Source: Thelocarpon superellum
Lineage: Eukaryota
Direction: 5' to 3'
Assembly: GCA_026025795.1 (NCBI GenBank)
Contig: JAPEUG010000127.1
Coordinates: 1 to 39,905, forward strand
DNA length: 39,905 nt
The notes below the pieces were generated by a model. That model saw nothing but the letters and a program-made list of their open reading frames with translations, had not been told where the DNA came from and made no database searches. Positions 4,033-36,281 of this stretch are shown here, piece after piece. The translations under genes and the position numbers were made by a program. Positions within the stretch are counted from its first letter, which is position 1. The number at the start of each line of letters is the position of its first letter.

Positions 4033-5931
4033 GGCGGGCCGAGGAAGGAGAAAGCCGGGACTGCGGCGCGAGGTGGGCTGAAAGTGATCAGGCCGGACGA
4101 TGTGATGCGTTACTTACGACCGCTGGCTCGATGTGGCCATGGCCAAGGAGATGACCACTACGACGCTAATATTCGGATGGAAGGCCGGCCTGCTCAGGTC
4201 GTCGTGTGAGCCTCCTCATGAACCGGTGCGATGCGAGCTCGATGGGGAGGGAGCACAAAGACTGCCGTGGGGCTGCATCTAGCGACAGGCTCTGCGCTAA
4301 GAACGTGCCCCCAAACCGATACGCTGGACCGTTGTACTCGTACGCGTACTTTGTACTACACGGCTTGCGCCAAATGAAGGACTATGTTACTTCTTTGGCT
4401 GCCTTGCGTGCGCGTAGAGGTCTTTACGCTGGAGGCTCGCTTGATGATTCGCCGGGCAACGTGACGGCAGAAGTTGCGATTGGGGTTCTCCTGGGACGGA
4501 GTATGGAATGCCCGCCGTGGATTTGGCTCGGCTCTTCGCAGGGCGACGATCTGGATCAGTCACTCGGATGGCGGCGTTGTACTTTGCTGTTAGTCGCGAC
4601 CAAATTGCGCGATTCGACGTTTCGTAGCCGGCAGTCAGGCAAGACCTTCCTGCACAAAACGCCAAGCGAGCACGACTCTCGCCCTCGATGTCCGACGCCC
4701 GGTAGTGAGTCGCTAGCTGGAAGTTTGCCGGGCTGCCGCCTGTGCCAGGCGGGATGCAATGCTGAACCGACGTGGCATTTGACGCAAGATCCTCCTCGTG
4801 GCTTTTCCCCCTTTGAGAGGGCCGTGCAGGGAAGAGCACGGTCTTGTCCGACCTCGCGAAGAGCCACGAGTCTCCTCGACGCCCCGTCGTCCCTACGCGC
4901 GAGAGCACACCGGCAGAGACGGGTATCACCGCCGGCGATGCTCCAGGAAACGACGACGCGCGCGTGGTCTACGACCTGTTGCTCGCGTGCACTTGTCCGT
5001 TCTCCACTCGGACGACGCTGTGCCGTTCCCCCACGTGTAACCAGAACGTTTAGTTGGCATTCCTTCCCGAGCTTGTTAGCTAAAGCCGCACTCAACACGT
5101 CCAGCGTTGGAGCGGGCGCGAGAGATCTAACTGACCGTAGGATCTCCGCGAAGTTTCTAAGGATGCTACTTGTAGAGGATGGCTTCAGAGCTAGCCCTTA
5201 CCGTGCTCAGGGATTGATCTCGATCTCGATCCGGGACACGACTGAGAGTACTCGTCCGTCTTGCTTTTTGCGCCCTAAAGCTTCCTCCCTGGTCGTCCTA
5301 TGACGAGGCGACGTCTTAGTGACGCCCGCTACCCGTCTACAGATGAAGCCCCGGAAAATGAACGGCCCCCCCCCGGTCCATTCTCCTTAGTCACAGCTGC
5401 ACGGAGCTCGAGACATCAAGAGCGTGGCGGGCTTGGATAGACATGGGCTTACTTGGCTCCATGCGCAGAATAACCTTCTTCCACCTACCCCAGCTCTTAG
5501 CTGCGTCGCTGCGTCGCCACTGCCGCAGCGCACCTCGGCGACGTGCCTGGTCCTTGGTTTACTGTGCCACCATTGGACCAGACGAGTATGAACGTAGTTC
5601 CGCCTCCCACTCCCGCCCTGCTAGTTCCTAGGCCCCGTCACTGCGAGCTCCTCTTCCTTGATAGGACGCCTGACTTCTTGTTCCCTTCTTTCCTGTCCGT
5701 CTCGCAACACTTCCTGTCCTCGCTCTCGCCGCGTCACATCTCACATTTTCCCTCCCATTGCTGGCCTGCTACCCACACGGAGCGCTGGGCCGGACGGACA
5801 GCAGGTCAATACGGCCAGCCACGTGCGGATGTCTCCTTCTCGCTGGTAAGTCTCGTCCTCGTCTATCGACCGACCAAGTGCGCGTCTCACGCCGTGTCTA
5901 GCTCTTTTCTTTCTCTCCATCGTCTCTCACG

Positions 5932-10192: not shown

Positions 10193-10234
<42 letters not shown>

Positions 10235-21370: not shown

Positions 21371-23470
21371 GCTTGTCCCTCACGACAGGCGGGGCGCGTT
21401 CACGTCGAGGACGTCCAGACGGCAGCCTGGATGATCGTGTCCGGCTACGGTCATGGGTTCGAGGGCCCAAATATTTGGTGTTTGAGTTGGTGCTGGATGT
21501 TGCCGTCTCGGGGGGAGGCCGAGCACCGTCCCGGGTCAGCGACGGGGTCGTCGCGGGTCCATCCTCGTGGCGGTTGGAGGTGACGGCAGTGGCCCAGCGT
21601 GACGAGGAATGTGCGAGGTGACGCAAGGACGCGGGTGAGTGCTTCGGGTGTTCTTGTGGGTGTGTCGCTCAGTACCAATGCGTCCGATCAACACCACGAT
21701 GGCAGTGGTGGAGGGGCAGGCGTGGAGGGTGGAGAGACGACGGATGGGGAACGAGAGGTGCGGCACCCCAGGGGTGAATGAGTGTATGGGCCGATGGGTG
21801 GAGAATGGGAGGCCGGCGATGGGCGGTGCGTGCCGGAAGAAGGGAGTTACGACGACAATGACGATGATAGCGAGCACTCGCGGTCGATCACTCCGCCGCG
21901 GCGTCGGCTGAGATTGGGGTGGGGAGAGACGAAGGAATGGAATCTTTCTGCAGTGGCGCGTGTGCACTGCGCGGACTGGCAAAGTTGGCGGTAGCGCGAC
22001 GAGAGTCGTGGAGGGGTAAACTCTGGGACTATGCCGGAGCCAGCAACGGCACCAGCCCAGCGTCAGTCCAGCGGCCCCAGCGTCACTCAGCACTCCAGCA
22101 AATCCCAGCACACTCGGCCCTAACCTCCGCCGGAATATGGCATAGCACTCCCAGCAGATGGTGAAGTGAGCTGCGGCAGTGAGGTCCGGGTGGCATCGCT
22201 ACCAGCACTCCGCCTCCGTTCCTCCTTCCTACGCGTTCGCTATCTACCACGAGTGTGTACTCGTACCGGCCTGCCTCTCGTCGTCCAGTCTCGCGCCTAG
22301 CCCTGCTCCCCTCTAACTTAGTTCCTTGGTAGTTCCACGTCCCTTAGTTCTAAGTGGGGACCAGTCCTCACGCGGAGGACGACGCAGTCGGTGGAGCAGA
22401 CAAGCCACCAATGGTAAGAGGCGGCCCAAGATAGAGCAACAACCAGGACACCCGGGCTTGGCGCAAAGTGGCAGTGCGCGACGACGCTCGTCTCGACGAG
22501 CCCGGCGGACGCTGGGCGCTCGCTCAGCAACTCGTACCGCATGGGTCATGGTAACCGCTGACGAAGCGAGCAAAGCGAGAAGCGAACAGTCGGACGAGCC
22601 CTCGAAGGGAGTAGCTCGCCGAAGCGACTTCCCCCCCTCCTTGTCATCCCCACCATCATCGTCGCGACGACACTTGCGCCGACGGTCCGGCGCCGACGTT
22701 GGCGAGGATGGGCAAGCGAAGACGCCCTAGACACGTTGGCTCCAGCCCGCTCAAATGCTCATTCATCATCCATCATTTCGCAGCGCTCCCACCCACCCAC
22801 CCACACCGGCACCCATGCGTCCTCATCCGGTCGACGTACCACCCTCTGGCTCGCATCGTACAACGCTCTTCTTGCGTTTGCGTGTGCGTGTACTTGTAAA
22901 CTTGCGTCTCAAGCCTAGTCGTAGGCACGTCCGCGTCCTGCTCTTTCCCAAAGAGTTCCAACGGCAGACGCACGAAACATACATTGTGATGGCAATGCCC
23001 ATGATTTCGCTTGTCAAAACGTCCCCAACCGCGTGACCATGACTGAGAAGATGTAATAGCCCGACCAGCTGTGATGCAAGTAGTCCTCACGGGCAGGAGC
23101 AGAGACGATTGTCCGGCGTCCAGGGACGAGTAGAAACACCAACACCCTTGCATGGGCGCGACAAGACTGCGCTGGCGACCTTGTTTCACCATGGTGGCGG
23201 AGCTCGCCGCGCTCGGCGTATGGTAAGCAGTCCCAGTGGCACATTACCTGGGGACCATGATGGCTTTGTCCCCCACCAGGCCGGGCCGGGCACCGCGTTC
23301 CTCGTCTGCACGAATGCATCATGTCCTTCCCGGCGGTGACACGACGACGACGTCTGCCACCTCCTATTCGTCGCGAGATCCTTCGGGTACGCGTCAGATG
23401 ACGGCATGCGGTATGTGCTCGTACGAACACCTGAGTAGGAGAGCGGATCCAGGGTCTATCGCCGCCTGAA

Positions 23471-23512
23471 TCGGCATCGGCATGGCATCGGCATGGCATC
23501 GGCATCGGCATC
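23471..23512. repeat. Imperfect (GGCATC/GGCAT)n microsatellite
   Basis: tcggcatcggcatggcatcggcatggcatcggcatcggcatc. Confidence 0.85.
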
Positions 23513-24086
23513 GAGTGAGGCAACCCAACGGCAGGCGAGCATGACCGATGCGCGCACAGGACGTGGCATGTTTTCCAAGCTTCCCTCGTAGGAGGATCTC
23601 ACCGTCGGATCAGTAGTCTGTCATCGTTCTGTTCGTGGCGTCTATCCTTGTACAGGCGTGGCGGGTCATCTCTTGCCGCCAAGCCCGTGGAATGCATCAG
23701 GGTCCAGGGCGCATTCGCTTGCGGTCGCAGCATGAAGGTGCACCCGAGACGCTTGTTGACCCACCGCCGATCCAACATCCCTCGATGAAGTACGGGCCCG
23801 CCGTCACCTGAAAATGCTGGGAATCAATGGGAATGCGTGCAAGCAGCGCTGCAATACCGACCGTGCTGCGTCACCTACGATCCCCGCTCGCATTCCATCC
23901 CCCGTTCATCCCCACCTGACCACCCATCTATCTTCCATATGCGCATACCAACGCGTCAGCGATCATTCTGCCCCGCGCCCAGGAATCATCCACACGCGCT
24001 GACAGGAAGTGCGGGCTAGCGCGCCGGTGCATCGCCATCTGGACCGCGATACTTCCCCCCATCTGTGTCAAGCCTGACGCAGAATT

Positions 24087-24100
24087 GGGGGGGGGGGGGG
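24087..24100 (+). repeat. Poly-G tract (14 nt)
   Basis: Directly visible; further G runs follow. Confidence 0.9.
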
Positions 24101-24966
24101 TCGAAGGGGGACGGATAGGAAAAGGTTGGGGCACACGCTACTCTGCCGAGCGCAGCCAATGTTCTTCGGGGCGAACAGCTAAGGCCCGGTCATGCCTTGT
24201 TAGTGCTCCTAGTGCCGTCGGCTGCGTCGATTTGTGGGGTAGGTGCCTTAGGCAAAGGTCTCGTGACGGACTGGCGGAAAAAAGCATCCCATCACCTGCC
24301 CGGGTTTGCAGTCCCGCGGTACGGTTGTGCTGGACGAGTACCTCGCCCGGGTCAACTCTACTCGAGTACTTCCAGCGCACGCGTCCCTTCCTGAAGACCT
24401 AGCTAGGGTAGAATCTATCTAGGTAGGGGTAGGAGTCCCCCCGTCGTACCTTGTTTCTCCGGGCAATAGGGCCGGGACCGTCCGTTGGCGCTCTTCCTGT
24501 TCGTTTTCGCGACCACAATAATCATTTGAGAAAGCTTCCCGTTACCATCCCTCCTTTTTGTCAACCCACGCGCTCGTCCTCCCTGCTTCCATCTCTTCCC
24601 TCGTCTGCGCACGAGTCTGTCTCGCCCCTGTGTACCTATTCGTAGATGAATGAACGCCAAGCGATGCCTATCCATGCCACGCCTGCGGCGTCGCGGCGTC
24701 TGATGTCTGACGGCTGCATCACCACCCGACCATCGCAAACTAGCGCAGACCTGCTCGCCCACGAGGACATCCGGAACCACTACTCCCTTGTCGTTAGCAT
24801 TACCGCCTATGTTACCTAACACAGCTGCTCCTAGCGCGAGCTCTGGAGTAGCATCTCGTCACTGTTACTCATAGTCCGAGATCTGGAACAGCGCCTACTT
24901 TTCTTAGTCGCAGGACCTTCAATCGGACGATGGGTTGCCAATGGAAATGGCAAGAGTTGTGGTAAT

Positions 24967-29113: not shown

Positions 29114-30878
29114 TCACTCAAACGTCTTCTTCTGACCCTTGAAGTCACCGAAACCGCCACGGTTCGTGCTGCTCCCACGCGAGCCGCCACGGCCTCCACG
29201 GCCACTACGATCACCGAAGCCGCCTCGACCGCCACGATCCCCGAAGCCACCGCGGCCGCGGCCACCGAATCCACCACGGCCGCCACGGTCTCCAAAGCCT
29301 CCACGGCCGCCACGACCGCGAGGAGATCCGTCGTTGGGCTGCCGCGGGGTAGAGAAGTCTAGGCGGATGGGACGACCACAGATGGCGGCACCTTTCATGC
29401 CCTCGAGCGCCGTCTTGGCTTCCTCGACGCTGGCGAACTGCACGTACCCGAAACCCTTGGGATTGCCCGATTCCCTGCGCATCGGGTCAGCCTAGATCTT
29501 CGCGAGCCCAGGTGCAGCAGGCAACTCACATATCGGTGGGCAGCCGGACGTGCGTCACCGTCCCGTGCTTGCCGAACTCCTCGCCGATGAGATCCTCGTT
29601 GGCCTCGAACGAGATATTGCCGATGAACAAGGTATCACTCTCCGCACTGGGCGTGTCACCGTAGCTCTGCGACCGGAAGTTGGATTTTTCGCGAAAGTTC
29701 CCACCCTGCGCACCGTCGGTGGTTCGAGGTGTCGAGAAGTCAACGTTGGCCTCGCGGTTGTCGATGAGAGAGCCCTTCTTGGCTTCCAGGGCCTTGGCGG
29801 CGTCGTCGGCGTTGACAAATTCCACGTAGCCAAATCTACTCCGTGTAAGCATGCGATGCAGGGGCAAGATGGGGACGTAGTGGTCTGTCACCCACCCCTT
29901 CGATCGACCGGTGTTCCGGTCACTGATGATGCGCGTGCCCTTGAGCTCGCCAAATTCCTCGAATTCGCGCGCGAGCCACTCCTCATCCACGTTCCAGCTC
30001 AGGTTGCCCACGAATAGATTGCCCGTGGGTGCGGACGTGCCGTTCGTGGCGCCGCTGGCGTCGGTCTTTGACTTCTTGGTAGCGGCGACGGCGCTGTCGT
30101 CGGCCTTGCGCTTCTTGGGCGCCACATCGGCCTTCGTGTCGTCGTCGCTGCTGTCGTCTTCTGAATCATCTTCGGAGTCGTCCTCGGACTCATCGTCTTC
30201 ATCGTCGTCTTCCGAATCCTCATCATCATCCTCGGAGTCGTCCTCATCCGACGGAGTCTACGAGAGCTGATCAGTCGCTAGCTTCACCGATGACAGAAAA
30301 GGTATGCCTACCTCAGTCTTGGTCACTTTCTTGGACACTCCATTGGTCGCAGCTGCCTTTTGGGCCGGCTTCGAGCTCTCTTCACTCGAGTCGCTATCGT
30401 CGGAGCCGGATTCCGAGTCGGACGCAGCAGCCTTGGCCTTGATCGCGGTGGGTGCGTCATCCTCATCCTCATCCTCATCCTCGTCATCATCACCAGACGA
30501 GTCAGAGGAGTCCGAGGTTTCGGCCTCCTTCTTGGCCTTGCTAGCGCCATTGACTGCGGGGGTGATAGGCTTGTCCATGTCGACGTCGGAACCGCTGTCG
30601 CTCGCGCTGGCACTCTCGTCAGAGTCGCTCGCATCTTCGTCATCGTCGCCACTGCTCTCCGGCTCTGGCGTCGGCTCCTTCTTGGCCTTGGAGGACTTGG
30701 ATCCCTTGACCTTGCTGGCGATCTGCTTGGCCAGATCTTTGCTCTTGGATTTGGGCGTCTGCGACGGCTTGGTGACGCTGCCAGTCATGACCGCCTTGAG
30801 CGCCTTGGCTTTCGCACGCTGCGCCTCCATGGCCTCTTTCATTCCGTTCGACTTGCTGCTCTCTTTGGTCTTTCCCAT
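29114..30878 (-). CDS. NSR1: Nucleolin-like protein Nsr1/Gar2; exons 30878-30312, 30257-29896, 29835-29530, 29474-29114
   Basis: Lys-rich and acidic/Ser-rich N-terminus, NLS PKKRKA, two RRMs (LFVGNL..KGFGYVEF; LFIGNI..KGFGYVQF), RGG/GAR tail. Introns 30311-30258, 29895-29836 and 29529-29475 all have GT..AG ends. Confidence 0.95.
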
Positions 30879-30914
30879 TGCAACGACACCGATGCCGATG
30901 ATGGCGATAATCTA

Positions 30915-31340
30915 CTACAGGCGTCAGTACCAGGGGGTTGCCGTTCAGGTTGGTACCGGTAGCCAAAGGTGCAATGTGCCCACGGAGCTCGGAAGTTGAA
31001 CGAACTCTCGGAAATATTCTCGGTGATGCCCACAGTCCACACGATGATGTGCAACGATCCCACAAGTGACGAGCCGCACGGAAGATGGTGAGATCTTCGA
31101 CGGCGTCACGAAGAGTGCGGCGAAATCCCTCAAAGCCCACAAGAGAATGGAGGAAGGTGCCGAAACACAATCACTCGTCAACCCACACGAGACGTCCCAC
31201 GATGATTGCCCACAGAGCCCACTGGTGCTGCCGCCGCCCGGTGCGAGGTGCGAGATGGCAGATTGTCTGACCCACGTCGTATCACACTCTCTCTGATGTC
31301 AAGCCCACTGTCTTGCCGCGATGGAGCCTTCAGATCTCAC
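30915..31340 (-). other. Predicted long 5'-UTR intron of NSR1 (426 nt)
   Basis: Minus-strand branch point and acceptor TACTGACGCCTGTAG|TAG (tandem NAGNAG) lie about 35 nt before the ATG. The best donor is GTGAGA at 31340; this assignment is tentative. Confidence 0.55.
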
Positions 31341-31447
31341 TAGAGTGGCCTCAGATCGAATCAACGAGGTCTGAAAAGGATGCACGAACAAATGCGCGAT
31401 GGTGAAGAGTGTTATGGAGCAGCTTGGGTTTTCGCCCGAGAGCGTTT

Positions 31448-31458
31448 GTAAATTTTCC
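31448..31458 (-). promoter_or_regulatory. RRPE-like element (GGAAAATTTAC) upstream of NSR1
   Basis: Resembles the GAAAWWTT rRNA-processing element typical of ribosome-biogenesis promoters. It lies just upstream of the pyrimidine-rich putative first exon. Confidence 0.35.
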
Positions 31459-31841
31459 CAGGCCCGATTATCTCTGGGAAGCGGGATGGCGGGACCCGGA
31501 CGGCCCTGCAGTGCGTTCGGTTAGCAAGTGGGCCACTCACCGCCCAACAGTCTGCCCGCTCTCTCCTCACCGCTCAGGAGGCGCTAACCGAATTGGCCGT
31601 AGCGCGCTGGATGCACCAGTCGGCAGTTCAGACCAGTCATGCAGGAGCGAACTGGAAGACTAGACGCGATGAATGCTGATGAATACTGAGTTCGGATAGC
31701 TGTCGATCTTTCACGCCAGCCGGTCCAAAGCTACGGATACCGTCCTCAATCCCTTTGTGCTGATCTGTCGTCAACACGACTTGGCTAGTGAGCTGCGTGA
31801 GACTATGACACCGTCACAGTAAAGATGCAGCAGTCGCAAGC

Positions 31842-33745
31842 ATGGCATCCACCTCCACATTCCACAAGCCTCGAACCGGGACCAAACGTTCCAGGTCCCC
31901 TACAGCCCCGGTGACAGCATCTGCATCGGGCTCTCTGAAGCCGGGCTTCGCTTTGCTCGCCTTCCTGTGGCCGACGAGAACGATCACATCGCAATGGGTG
32001 GTCCTTCCGGCCATTCTCATGATTGTGGCCCTATTTCGGTGGGCGACGGCACTCTGGCCATACTCTGGTACCGGGACCTTCTCCCTCTTCATCGTTCTTG
32101 GATTGGCGCTGACGGCGACCTACGCTCCCAGGCTACCAGTCACCCCCCATGCACGGGGATTTTGAAGCGCAGCGACACTGGATGGAGATCACCACCCAAG
32201 TGCCCATGACCGAATGGTACTTTCATGACCTTGATTGGTGGGGCCTAGACTACCCTCCTCTTACCGCTTACCACAGCTGGGTACTCGGGTTGATGTACGT
32301 GACATGTCCCAGCCAACGATGAAGGTCGCCCGCGTAATTGACGCTGGGTCCGGTGCAGTGGCTCCTTCATTGATTCCACCTGGTTTGCGCTGTACACCTC
32401 TCGAGGCTTGGACGACCCGTCGCTAAAGATCTACATGCGTGCCACCGTGCTGCTCTCGGAATACCTCGTCTATGTGCCTGCCGCGGTGCTGTTCGTGCGA
32501 GGTGCCGTTCGATCGCAGGGCTTGCGGACATGGGAGGGCAATGCGGCGCTAACAGCGCTGCTGATGCAGCCGGCGCTCATGCTGGTCGACCATGGTCATT
32601 TTCAATACAACGCCGTCATGCTCGGATTCGTGCTGGCCACGGTGGTTTCCCTTCAAGCACAGCGATGGCGTTGGGCCTGCGTCTTCTTTGTGGCCGCACT
32701 GGGCTTCAAGCAGATGGCTCTGTACTACGCGCCCGCCGTCTTTGCCGCACTCCTCGCGGCATGCTTGACGCCGCAGATCCGACCTGGTCGATTTCTTAGC
32801 ATCGCCCTGGTGACTGCGATCTCGTTTGCCGCGCTCTTCGCCCCGCTACTTGTCGCCGCACTGTGGAACGGGCCAGTGGCAGGCCCGAACGAGCAGGTGG
32901 ACTCCGTCGTCCTCCCCATCGTCTCCTCGGTTCCACTCATCTCGGCTCTCTCGGCCCAAAAAACGGCGTGGTATTTTCCCCCGTTGCAACAGCTGGCCCA
33001 GTCAATTCACCGCATCTTTCCGTTTGCACGGGGCATCTTCGAGGACAAGGTGGCCAACGTTTGGTGCACGCTCAATATCTTCATCAAGCTGCGCCAGTTT
33101 CCTCCAGCCCTCCTGCAGCGCGCCTCGTTGCTCTCGACGCTTGCCGCTATCACCCCCCCGTGTGTCTTGATCTTATTCCGACCGCGACACGGCACGCTCC
33201 TCTACTCCTTAGCCGGCACGGCGTGGGGCTTCTTCCTTTTCAGCTTCCAGGTACACGAGAAGTCCGTCCTGCTCCCTCTGCTGCCCATGACGCTGCTCCT
33301 CGCGCATCGCGGTGGCTTTTCCCCCGCGATTCGCGCGTGGGTCGGATGGGCCAACGTCTTGGGCGTCTGGACAATGTATCCGCTGCTGAAGCGGGACCAG
33401 CTTCAGGTGCCTTACGTCGTTCACACGCTGCTCTGGGCATACCTTCTCGGTCTTCCCGCCGGTAGCGGCAGCCAAGAGCCGAAAGGAGGGGTCACCCTCG
33501 GCACGCGAATGCTGCATCTGAGCTTCTACGCCCTCATGATCCTGTGGCACATTGCCGAAGCATTCCTGCCGCCACCGGACGGCAAACCAGATCTCTGGGT
33601 GGTTCTAAACGCTGGACTTGGCGCGGCTGGGTTCGGGATCTGTTATATGTGGTGCCTCTGGCAGAGTCTGCGTGTGAGTGGACTCTTCCCCGCTCGCTTT
33701 GCGGGCCAGGGCTCGGCGGATACGGCGAAGGCCAAGCGAATCTAG
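31842..33745 (+). CDS. ALG6: Dol-P-Glc:Man9GlcNAc2-PP-Dol alpha-1,3-glucosyltransferase Alg6; exons 31842-32067, 32132-32294, 32359-33745
   Basis: Spliced motifs [71 protein letters not shown]; multiple TM segments. Introns 32068-32131 and 32295-32358. Confidence 0.95.
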
Positions 33746-34552: not shown

Positions 34553-34666
34553 GTAGTACCAGTACTACTGGTAGTACTACTATAGTGTAGTGGTATCAGT
34601 GCCCGCGCTTAATAGTACTACTAGTAGTATGTTAGTAATAGTAGTAACATAGTAGTAGTAACAAGT
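34553..34666. repeat. AT-rich TAG/TAC low-complexity patch containing short palindromes
   Basis: Repeated TAGTA/TACTA; palindromes at 34557-34573, 34571-34580 and 34616-34629. Confidence 0.7.
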
Positions 34667-34722
34667 GAGGAATCAGAGCTGCATTGCTAATCTACGCGTA
34701 GTCGGGATAGTGATAGGAGTGA

Positions 34723-34942: not shown

Positions 34943-36281
34943 ATGGCGTCGACCACCGTCTTCTCTCTGGACGGCCAAGGACTCAAACTCGACACGGCCG
35001 CAGATGTGGAGCCCCACATTAAATCGCTCCGGGAAAGTTCCACGGTAGAGGAGATCCGTCTCGGCGGGAACACCCTCGGTCCTGAGGCATGTGGTGCGCT
35101 AGCACAGGTGCTGGAGCACAAAACAACATTACGGGTGTGGCTTGTCTGTTGTTCAACTCCGCCGTTCCTACGCTGACGGCCTCGAGGTGGCCAACTTGGC
35201 CGACATCTTCACCTCGCGACTACTGTCCGAGATCCCTCCTGCCCTGTCTTTCCTCCTTACCGCCCTTCTCAAGCTTCCATTGCTGCACACGATCAACCTC
35301 TCGGACAATGCGTTCGGTCTCAACACTCAAGCTCCTCTCGTGGAATTTCTCTCCAAACATGTTCCACTTCGCCACTTGATCCTGAACAACAACGGCTTAG
35401 GCCCTCACGCAGGAGTCTTGATCGCTGATGCCCTGTCTTCGCTACACACCAAGAAGGAAGCTGCGCGAGCAGCAGGTCAGACCGTACCCGATCTGGAGAC
35501 GGTGGTGTGCGGACGGAATCGACTGGAGAATGGGAGCATGCAAGCGTGGGCCAAGGCATTTGTGGCGCATAACGGACTGCGAGAAGTGAAGATGGTACAG
35601 AACGGCATTCGACAAGAAGGCATCTCGCACCTCCTCCGGGAAGGTCTCGCGCATGCCACCGCGCTCCGGCTACTAGATCTACAAGACAACACCTTTACGA
35701 TGCTCGGCTCGCGCGCTCTTGCCGAAGTTGCCCCTCGGTGGACTCAGCTGCGTGAGCTAGGCGTAGGCGATGGGCTCCTGTCAACACGAGGCGGTATCGT
35801 CGTCGCAGAAGCCCTTGGCCAGGGCAAGAACGTGCACCTCGAGACCCTCCGACTTCAATACAACGACATCGACAGCAAAGGACTTGCAGGCTTCACGCAT
35901 GCAGTCAAGAATGCACTTCCGGCACTGAAGCGGATTGAGCTCAACGGCAACAAATTCGCCGAAGAGGATCCCAGTCTCGACACGCTCCGTGACATCCTCG
36001 AACAGCGTCGTTCCGCCGCCACTGGTCAAGATCGGGGGGCGAACAGCGGAGAGGACGAAGGAGAGGGCGAGGGGGAATGGGGAATCGACTCTCTCAGCGA
36101 CCTGGAAGAGGATGACGAAGACGAAGAGGGCGAAGAAGAGGAAGAGGAGGAGGAGAAGGAAGAGAAAGCAGACAAAATCCTACAAGAAGCCGACGCAGCC
36201 GAGGCCGAGAACGTGCCGCAGCAGAAAGACAAGGCGGTGGACGCGTTGGCCTCGGAGCTGGATCGTGCAGAGCTGAAGTGA
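34943..36281 (+). CDS. RNA1: Ran GTPase-activating protein Rna1; exons 34943-35134, 35187-36281
   Basis: LRR repeats with GNTLG, ADIFTSRL, NLSDNAFG, NNNGLGP, CGRNRLENGS, QNGIR, LDLQDNTFT, LQYNDI, ELNGNKF; acidic tail. Intron 35135-35186. Confidence 0.95.

Follow-up and report, generated by a model that had tools for sequence, protein, structure and literature searches.

The window, by which we mean the whole 39,905-nt stretch of DNA analysed in this work, carries on its minus strand an NSR1/nucleolin-like gene. It runs from an ATG at 30878-30876 through an acidic-serine N-terminal part, two RRMs and an RGG tail to a stop codon at 29114-29116, and is interrupted by short introns. The relatives of its product are Pezizomycotina proteins labelled nucleolin by their sources, the nearest named one being from Candelina (78% over 185 columns). 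A glycosyltransferase gene of the Alg6/Alg8 family diverges from NSR1 on the plus strand, and the region between the two genes contains AAATTTT and GCGATG boxes, which we take to be similar to two elements of ribosome-biogenesis promoters, the RRPE and PAC boxes. These boxes would fit a transcription start site upstream of an array of short motifs that lies in front of NSR1. The features of the region are listed below, the short elements having been recognised in the sequence itself.

29114..30878, minus strand: NSR1/nucleolin-like gene (RRM_1 match, 2.6e-12)
31843-33745, plus strand: divergent neighbour, glycosyltransferase of the Alg6/Alg8 family (Pfam, 2.9e-92)
31450..31456, no strand assigned: AAATTTT in the divergent promoter
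31318, 31396 and 31666, no strand assigned: three GCGATG in the NSR1/ALG divergent intergenic region
30979..31308, minus strand: GUGGG array of ten copies, representing the conserved NSR1 UTR module in the window
31127-31131, minus strand: one variant copy, sense GAGGG, within the array
31115..31121, minus strand: single GCCGCAC element inside the array
31073..31079, minus strand: GUGCGGC, the perfect complement of GCCGCAC

An ORF with the same conserved Alg6/Alg8-family peptide stretch was also seen near NSR1 at one of the orthologous loci (L020, 8648-9289), in a different arrangement.

The array occupies positions 105-430 nt upstream of the NSR1 ATG, where CCCAC is read on the plus strand at 30979, 31029, 31059, 31136, 31182, 31196, 31209, 31218, 31271 and 31304, corresponding to ten sense GUGGG. 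With 60 CCCAC on the plus strand of the 39,905 nt, 0.50 copies are expected per 330 nt and the Poisson tail for ten is 1.6e-10; no minus-strand CCCAC occurs between 30452 and 31528. When all 5-mers of the window are ranked by the strength of their clustering in 330 nt, CCCAC comes sixth. Judged from coordinates, the stronger clusters of TCATC (30166-30487) and GGGGG (24087-24106) correspond to the acidic coding part of NSR1 and to a G run, and those of TAGTA, GTAGT and GCCAG (34553-34698 and 1529-1844) lie at or beside repeats found by TRF (34622-34660 and 1791-1852). A tandem repeat or microsatellite was considered for the array itself and rejected: none of the 16 TRF rows of the window overlaps the array region, and a repeat search returned just families of 9-16 nt, all centred on the motif, so that the spacers are unrelated. 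The initial description of the array (ten copies at these positions against roughly 0.5 expected, none in the opposite orientation, unrelated spacers and no tandem repeat) was therefore reproduced in every respect.

Several minor elements accompany the array. In the RNA, GUGCGGC lies about 35 nt downstream of GCCGCAC, with which it may form a 7-bp stem; such a stem would surround a smaller CUUCG/CGAAG hairpin. This antisense copy of GCCGCAC is found in the window alone among 13 modules of the same type (5' type, see below). A perfect 9-nt inverted repeat, GTGAGATCT / AGATCTCAC (31088-31096 and 31332-31340), would enclose seven motifs and takes in a putative 5' splice site discussed below; we set it aside as a structural element, about two such pairs being expected by chance in 971 nt. 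Elsewhere in the window, hexamer tandem repeats (CCAGCG, GGACGA, ATCGGC and GGAAGA; 1791-1852, 10194-10234, 23470-23513 and 36104-36168) and a CCCA tetramer run with four overlapping CCCAC matches (22788-22804) are unrelated to the NSR1 array.

Orthologous loci were collected from metagenome contigs scanned with an alignment of the RRM regions, which gave 303 pattern matches and 181 confirmed relatives, the best 80 of these 181 being kept. Start and stop codons of the orthologues could be placed by means of their conserved termini, MAKTKE...VTKPSQTPKSKSKE at the N-terminal and GDFKGKKQTF* at the C-terminal end. Together with the window, this set of the best 80 of 181 provided 34 rows with at least 700 nt before the ATG, forming 20 non-redundant groups; counts are given per row, or per non-redundant group where these were formed, and related loci are not independent. 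In the zone from -700 to -1, sense GTGGG is present ten times in the window and L001, nine times in L025 and L061, eight in L006, L071 and L074, seven in L035, six in L059, five in L070, three in L037, twice in L029, L036 and L054, once in L045 and L052, and is missing from L011, L018, L020 and L021. Antisense CCCAC stays at 0-2 per zone counted throughout, in leaders as in 3' zones. The enrichment foreseen for orthologous leaders thus holds in many groups and fails in others, several of the 20 having only 0-2 copies.

Longer words delineate the motif more sharply. In the 11 array-bearing leaders, GTGGGCT was seen 42 times against 0.22 expected from the loci flanks and GTGGGCTT 27 times against 0.03; TGTGGGC and the variants TGAGGGC and GAGGGCTT are enriched as well, and the reverse complements of the enriched words do not occur at all in these leaders. 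A position table built from 151 5' and 105 3' instances gives Y-U-G-[U/A]-G-G-G-C-U-U as the full motif, present in 7-18 sense-strand copies per module in the sampled loci. A G beside the core is nearly excluded (1/152 before, 3/152 after), and GAGGGC accounts for 36% of the 5' instances. The real motif is thus longer than the GUGGG from which the analysis started, and GAGGGC is an equivalent variant. In the window the copies are somewhat degenerate, with a C following in 6 of 11 instances. A single sense GCCGCAC stands beside the array in 8 of 13 5' modules and 17 of 20 3' modules. The distant, long-branch orthologue L078 has a genuine 5' module (2450-2900) with seven GAGGG and one GUGGG, which opens with GCCGCACA as does the 3' form.

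The specificity of the array to NSR1 rests on the window (about 40 kb) and on up to 9.4 kb around each locus, and a second full-motif array was found in neither. Two G-rich stretches (L059, minus strand, 5528-5735, and L037, 7184-7386) were considered and rejected, being coding or unspecific G-rich sequence in which the GGGCUU context is missing.

Such G-rich, clustered motifs could in principle work as DNA, either through non-template G runs that form G-quadruplexes (G4) or R-loops or as a cluster of transcription-factor sites, an explanation that we regard as very unlikely. Each module holds 9-18 GGG tracts against 1-6 CCC tracts, and yeast Nsr1 has been found to bind G runs and co-transcriptionally formed G4 DNA through its RGG tail (PMC7768239). 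However, the canonical G4 arrangement (four G3 with loops of at most 7 nt) is found in 1 of 13 5' modules and 0 of 16 3' modules and is not conserved, a fourth G after the core is seen in just 3 of 152 instances, and the flanks of the motif are sequence-specific. When loops of up to 12 nt are admitted, 7 of 13 5' modules and 1 of 16 3' modules qualify, and long-loop or intermolecular G4 forms are possible. Sites for a transcription factor would not be expected to show full strand exclusivity despite the turnover of individual sites, nor the AUG depletion described below. A promoter cluster was accordingly rejected on the 42 sense copies against no reverse complement of the 7-mers and on the same strand being kept at the 3' end, and CreA/Mig1-type sites, which we take to be GTGGGG, on the rarity of the fourth G. 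It is highly probable, in our opinion, that the module is an RNA-level cis element of the NSR1 mRNA.

The placement of the array relative to NSR1 was scored in fixed zones, one before RRM1 and one after RRM2, for 81 rows (the best 80 of 181 loci and the window), 18 of which were too short. Among the 63 scorable rows, 30 are of 5' type and 31 of 3' type, none has both and two have neither. With sense arrays in 61 of 63 rows, the view that the array is strand-specific, linked to NSR1 and kept in orthologous loci is upheld, and the outcome by which the earlier note would have been refuted, a lack of enrichment at the orthologues, was not observed. The assignment of the array to the NSR1 5' leader is probably right for the window and the other 5'-type loci, but in one clade the array lies behind the stop codon. 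There, the same motif on the same strand is preceded by GCCGCAC, starts 12-44 nt after the stop codon, extends over about 400 nt and provides 5-12 GTGGG within the first 600 nt.

In a tree built from 189 RRM columns (IQ-TREE quick, LG+G4; 88 rows, 56 distinct), all 31 3'-type rows form one clade (SH-aLRT 100), and the three placement states of the 63 scored rows require two changes, which is the minimum. An extended tree with 12 named anchors (67 distinct rows; Rhexocercosporidium is not in the tree) recovers this clade with a support of 99 and shows that it holds Leotiomycetes proteins, including those of Pseudogymnoascus, Cadophora and Coleophoma; the nearest named proteins to the 3'-type L011 are from Helotiales (83-85%). 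The 5' type is found with Aspergillus and Penicilliopsis (L025 group, support 100), with Usnea and Cornicularia (L035, L037, L062 and L068, support 95), with Coniosporium (L056-L080) and with Candelina and Sarcosagium (the window, L001 and L006). Finally, the clade L007-L017 (L007-L010, L012, L014 and L017) has an intronless NSR1 in a single ORF of 487-493 aa (e.g., L009, 3820-5280) and the module at neither end of the gene. The RNP residues of both RRMs are unchanged in this clade, which has lost the module, and the module is therefore dispensable there. Most simply, the module would have been at the 5' end in the ancestor, moved to the 3' end once and been lost once.

Whether the 5' form belongs to the mature leader or to an intron bears directly on its possible function. 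The features of the window that matter in this respect are the following.

30879..31637, minus strand: AUG-free stretch before the NSR1 start (0 sense ATG against 20 on the opposite strand)
30923-30929, minus strand: branch-point-like TACTGAC
30915..30929 region, minus strand: putative 3' splice site CTGTAG, whose last letter is 30915 and which precedes the ATG by 36 nt
31335..31340, minus strand: GUGAGA, the 5' splice site chosen by the earlier note for a 426-nt intron (31340 to 30915)
30978..30983, minus strand: GUGGGC, the last motif copy, 5'-splice-site-like, which would give a 69-nt intron (30983 to 30915)

The 5' modules of 11 leaders contain 2 ATG in 4,256 nt versus 67 expected from shuffles, and other triplets are frequent in the same modules (82 CAT, 55 AGT and 47 GAT). 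No depletion is seen in a far-upstream control (750-1,400 nt upstream; 127 ATG and 125 CAT) or in 20 3' modules (150 ATG seen versus 164 expected). Selection against upstream AUGs is what marks a leader that ribosomes scan, and the array therefore probably lies in the mature leader. Downstream of the module, in the remaining stretch up to the start codon, ATG is back in 7 of 11 lineages. In the window, the AUG-free stretch would comprise a long 5' leader and a promoter-proximal part. A branch-point-like motif followed by YAG 10-55 nt before the ATG was detected by regular expression in 11 of 14 5'-type versus 0 of 9 3'-type leaders, and a strict 5' splice site fitting a short intron after the array is found in 6 of 13 lineages (L001, L025, L035, L037, L061 and L070).

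The earlier note had put the array inside the 426-nt 5'-UTR intron, in which case it might control the splicing or retention of that intron. The putative borders, GTGAGA at 31340 and a CTGTAG whose last letter is 30915, do exist in the sequence, with a good branch point and AG at 30915-30929. Moreover, L001 has an AAG|GUACGU about 55 nt before its array, and no strict 5' splice site follows the array in the window, L059, L071 and L080, the lone one of L074 being too near the branch point. In the window, the GUGGGC at 30978..30983 is the sole 5'-splice-site-like sequence between the array and the branch point. On the other hand, AUG depletion is unexpected for a constitutively removed intron, ATGs return after the module, and the short-intron 5' splice sites lie after the array in the six lineages named above. 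The upstream site of L001 is missing from its closest relative, L006, and the module of the Leotiomycetes-type clade is outside any 5' intron. The location of the array in a 426-nt intron thus appears improbable, and the AUG-poor 5' modules and the post-array splice sites argue that it is exonic. Most likely, a leader of about 450-550 nt that includes the array is followed by a short intron; possibly, the long intron is used in part of the transcripts. A reading of the motif copies as U1-binding or decoy 5' splice sites was disfavoured because the GAGGGC variant (36% of the 5' instances) cannot mimic a GU site. In most sampled Pezizomycotina lineages, including the window, the module would accordingly fill a long 5' leader devoid of AUG and bounded at its end by a short pre-ATG intron, the transcription start site, the intron borders and the poly(A) site being those predicted from sequence.

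The 3' modules lend themselves to comparative folding. Aligned from 21 loci, they are strongly conserved over about 480 nt after the stop codon, and RNAalifold proposes 36 pairs, 15 of them with compensatory changes, which belong chiefly to one long and one small hairpin. GCCGCACA is predicted to pair with one UGUGGGC of the 3' modules, a pair on which covariation is silent because both partners are invariant. The motif copies are separated by unrelated spacers or small hairpins. In single-sequence folds with ViennaRNA, the motif is unpaired with a probability of 0.20-0.25 versus 0.19-0.23 for other G residues and is not distinguished from them. The 3' module is closed, about 415-525 nt after the stop codon, by an invariant GGU[AG]AGU resembling a 5' splice site (21 of 21 aligned rows), of which four examples are given.

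L011, 3455-3461: GGU[AG]AGU in the alignment of 21 rows
L018, 5778: the same element
L045, 5687: the same element
L054, 5825: the same element

No conserved branch point or 3' splice site follows this element in the 21 3' loci, and the downstream genes differ. Three readings are conceivable: a remnant left by the relocation, a 5' splice site used by an intron of the 3' UTR, or a site for U1 binding. This orphan GGU[AG]AGU parallels the splice site found after the 5' module, and a joint move of module and splice site is thereby suggested, e.g., through a tandem duplication after which the redundant parts were lost.

The covarying hairpins, the strong conservation over about 480 nt in 21 loci and an invariant terminal element without conserved 3' splice site would also suit a hosted non-coding RNA, processed from the NSR1 transcript to a stable structured RNA such as a nucleolar scaffold; hosted RNAs do move between host positions. 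We judge this quite improbable, given that the AUG depletion of the 5' form speaks for selection as part of a translated mRNA and that neither Rfam nor inspection by eye for snoRNA box architecture revealed a known type of RNA. The Rfam/snoRNA scan proposed by the earlier note was run with Rfam 15: its two matches (E = 3 and 9.7) are both outside the array, in which no Rfam family is thus recognised, and 16 loci (128,472 nt) gave no match at the gathering score.

Which protein might read the module can be approached through the motif itself. A single-strand motif of 9-10 nt with G excluded on both flanks would suit tandem RRMs, and yeast Nsr1 reportedly binds single-strand TG1-3 DNA. After GGG, the second and third positions of the 5' instances are A in 21% and 16% and U in 68% and 50% of cases, and G occupies the fifth position in 10% of the 5' and 33% of the 3' instances. 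By comparison, the motif selected in vitro (SELEX) by S. cerevisiae Nsr1 is GGGNAANG, which matches the motif predicted from its mRNA targets in vivo (PMC3045596), and 703 mRNAs were tagged in vivo by the S. cerevisiae protein (PMC11571813). The yeast element resembles the module in its GGG core, in being a short (about 8 nt) single-strand motif and in its reader, an orthologous mRNA-binding protein. The two differ beyond GGG, where the module has C-U-U(-U) and the yeast element N-A-A-N-G (PMC3045596), that is U-U in place of A-A; the SELEX pattern is not matched by the module motif and only the GGG core is common to both. The available part of PMC3045596 reports no such array in the S. cerevisiae NSR1 mRNA.

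On this basis, we tentatively propose Nsr1 as the binder of the module, an identification that we hold with somewhat less than even confidence. In its favour are the exclusive and persistent link of the module to NSR1, the length of the motif and the published data on yeast Nsr1; against it are the GGG-only match to the SELEX motif and the RNP residues unchanged in the module-less clade. The same two observations would suit a different trans-factor reading the same platform, e.g., a growth-regulated RNA-binding protein of several ribosome-biogenesis mRNAs of which NSR1 is the most conspicuous target, and other genes were sampled only in the window and the loci flanks. That sampled sequence nonetheless yielded no second array, and the link to NSR1 survives the 5'-to-3' relocation (61 of 63 scorable rows), which makes a factor other than Nsr1 possible but doubtful in our view. 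Binding of Nsr1 may be compared on (UGUGGGCUU)n, UGAGGGCUU and core-mutated RNAs.

The array is a sense-only cluster of one short motif in the transcript of a gene for an RNA-binding protein, its location within the transcript being deduced from the AUG depletion. The explanation that we favour, while giving it slightly less than an even chance, is that it represents the window's copy of a conserved cis-acting module of the NSR1 mRNA that serves as a multivalent platform for an RNA-binding protein and sets NSR1 output. In the mature mRNA, the platform would be occupied by a sequence-specific single-strand RNA-binding protein, and the bound platform would act on translation, on stability or on the use of the adjoining splice site. 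Nsr1, with its two RRMs and RGG tail, would be the most economical candidate and would thereby establish a negative feedback. A platform in the leader would block scanning, and one in the 3' UTR would recruit repression or decay; a difficulty for this explanation is that action from either UTR needs a position-independent mechanism. Alternatively, the platform might control the adjoining 5' splice site at both ends. Retention of the short intron would bring in upstream AUGs in the 5' form; in the 3' form, an intron spliced out of the 3' UTR would make the mRNA a target of NMD, as reported from work in Neurospora for mRNAs with such introns. We rank this version lower because its 5' and 3' outcomes have opposite signs.

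A more specific version of feedback by Nsr1, which we consider rather unlikely, would make the array a portable sensor of free Nsr1, i.e., a multivalent mimic on the NSR1 mRNA of the pre-rRNA sites of Nsr1. A shortage of nascent pre-rRNA would leave Nsr1 unoccupied, and the free protein would then cover and silence the mRNA that encodes it. Its occurrence in Eurotiales-, Lecanoromycetes-, Candelina- and Coniosporium-related lineages would make such a sensor old, and the sensor would work on after its move, with the adjoining 5' splice site, from leader to 3' UTR in Leotiomycetes. Vertebrate nucleolin recognises on pre-rRNA the NRE stem-loop and the 11-nt single-strand ECM (10.1101/2021.06.09.447752); like the module, these are short specific RNA sites, and they raise the idea of pre-rRNA mimicry.

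Clusters through which RNA-binding proteins regulate their own genes are known from the A-rich element in the 5' UTR of the poly(A)-binding protein mRNA, the A-tract in the NAB2 3' UTR and the Nrd1/Nab3 sites in NRD1. The NSR1 module shares with them the many copies of a short single-strand motif, on the sense strand only, in a UTR of the gene of an RNA-binding protein; it differs by its new motif, by a binder that is a candidate and by having moved between UTRs yet stayed with the gene. A closer parallel for portability is the DSR of S. pombe meiotic mRNAs, bound by Mmi1, whose hexanucleotide clusters are active anywhere in the transcript. Both are multivalent arrays of short motifs, with position-independent action established for the DSR and required of the module; unlike the module, found at NSR1 only in the sampled sequence, the DSR has another motif and reader and occurs on many genes. 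In the same vein, clusters of the Ssd1 motif are found in the 5' UTRs of cell-wall mRNAs (PMC2573929), with a short motif in variable numbers and positions as in the NSR1 module, but they define a regulon of dozens of genes, have a different motif and have no known 3' relocation. No description of the NSR1 motif module was found in the literature searched, which was a limited library and not all that is in print.

Nsr1/nucleolin is a central and abundant factor of small-subunit ribosome assembly. To our knowledge, how fungi set its level has not been described, nor did we find it in the literature searched. A UTR module of 300-500 nt with up to 18 motif copies, kept across several fungal classes and despite its transfer between the two ends of the mRNA, constitutes strong comparative evidence that NSR1 is under post-transcriptional control and points to an as yet undescribed control at the RNA level. 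Should Nsr1 be the reader, ribosome biogenesis would gain an autoregulatory loop that is new, and the module would be a clear-cut example of regulatory RNA working from either UTR. Besides, the module offers a defined sequence for mutation, in which the GGG cores and GCCGCAC are the obvious targets, and its 5' and 3' forms are two natural configurations that can be compared in tractable fungi. Since L025 groups with the proteins of Aspergillus and Penicilliopsis, Aspergillus-type genomes are predicted to carry the 5' form, and the 3' form is predicted in Helotiales such as Botrytis or Sclerotinia.
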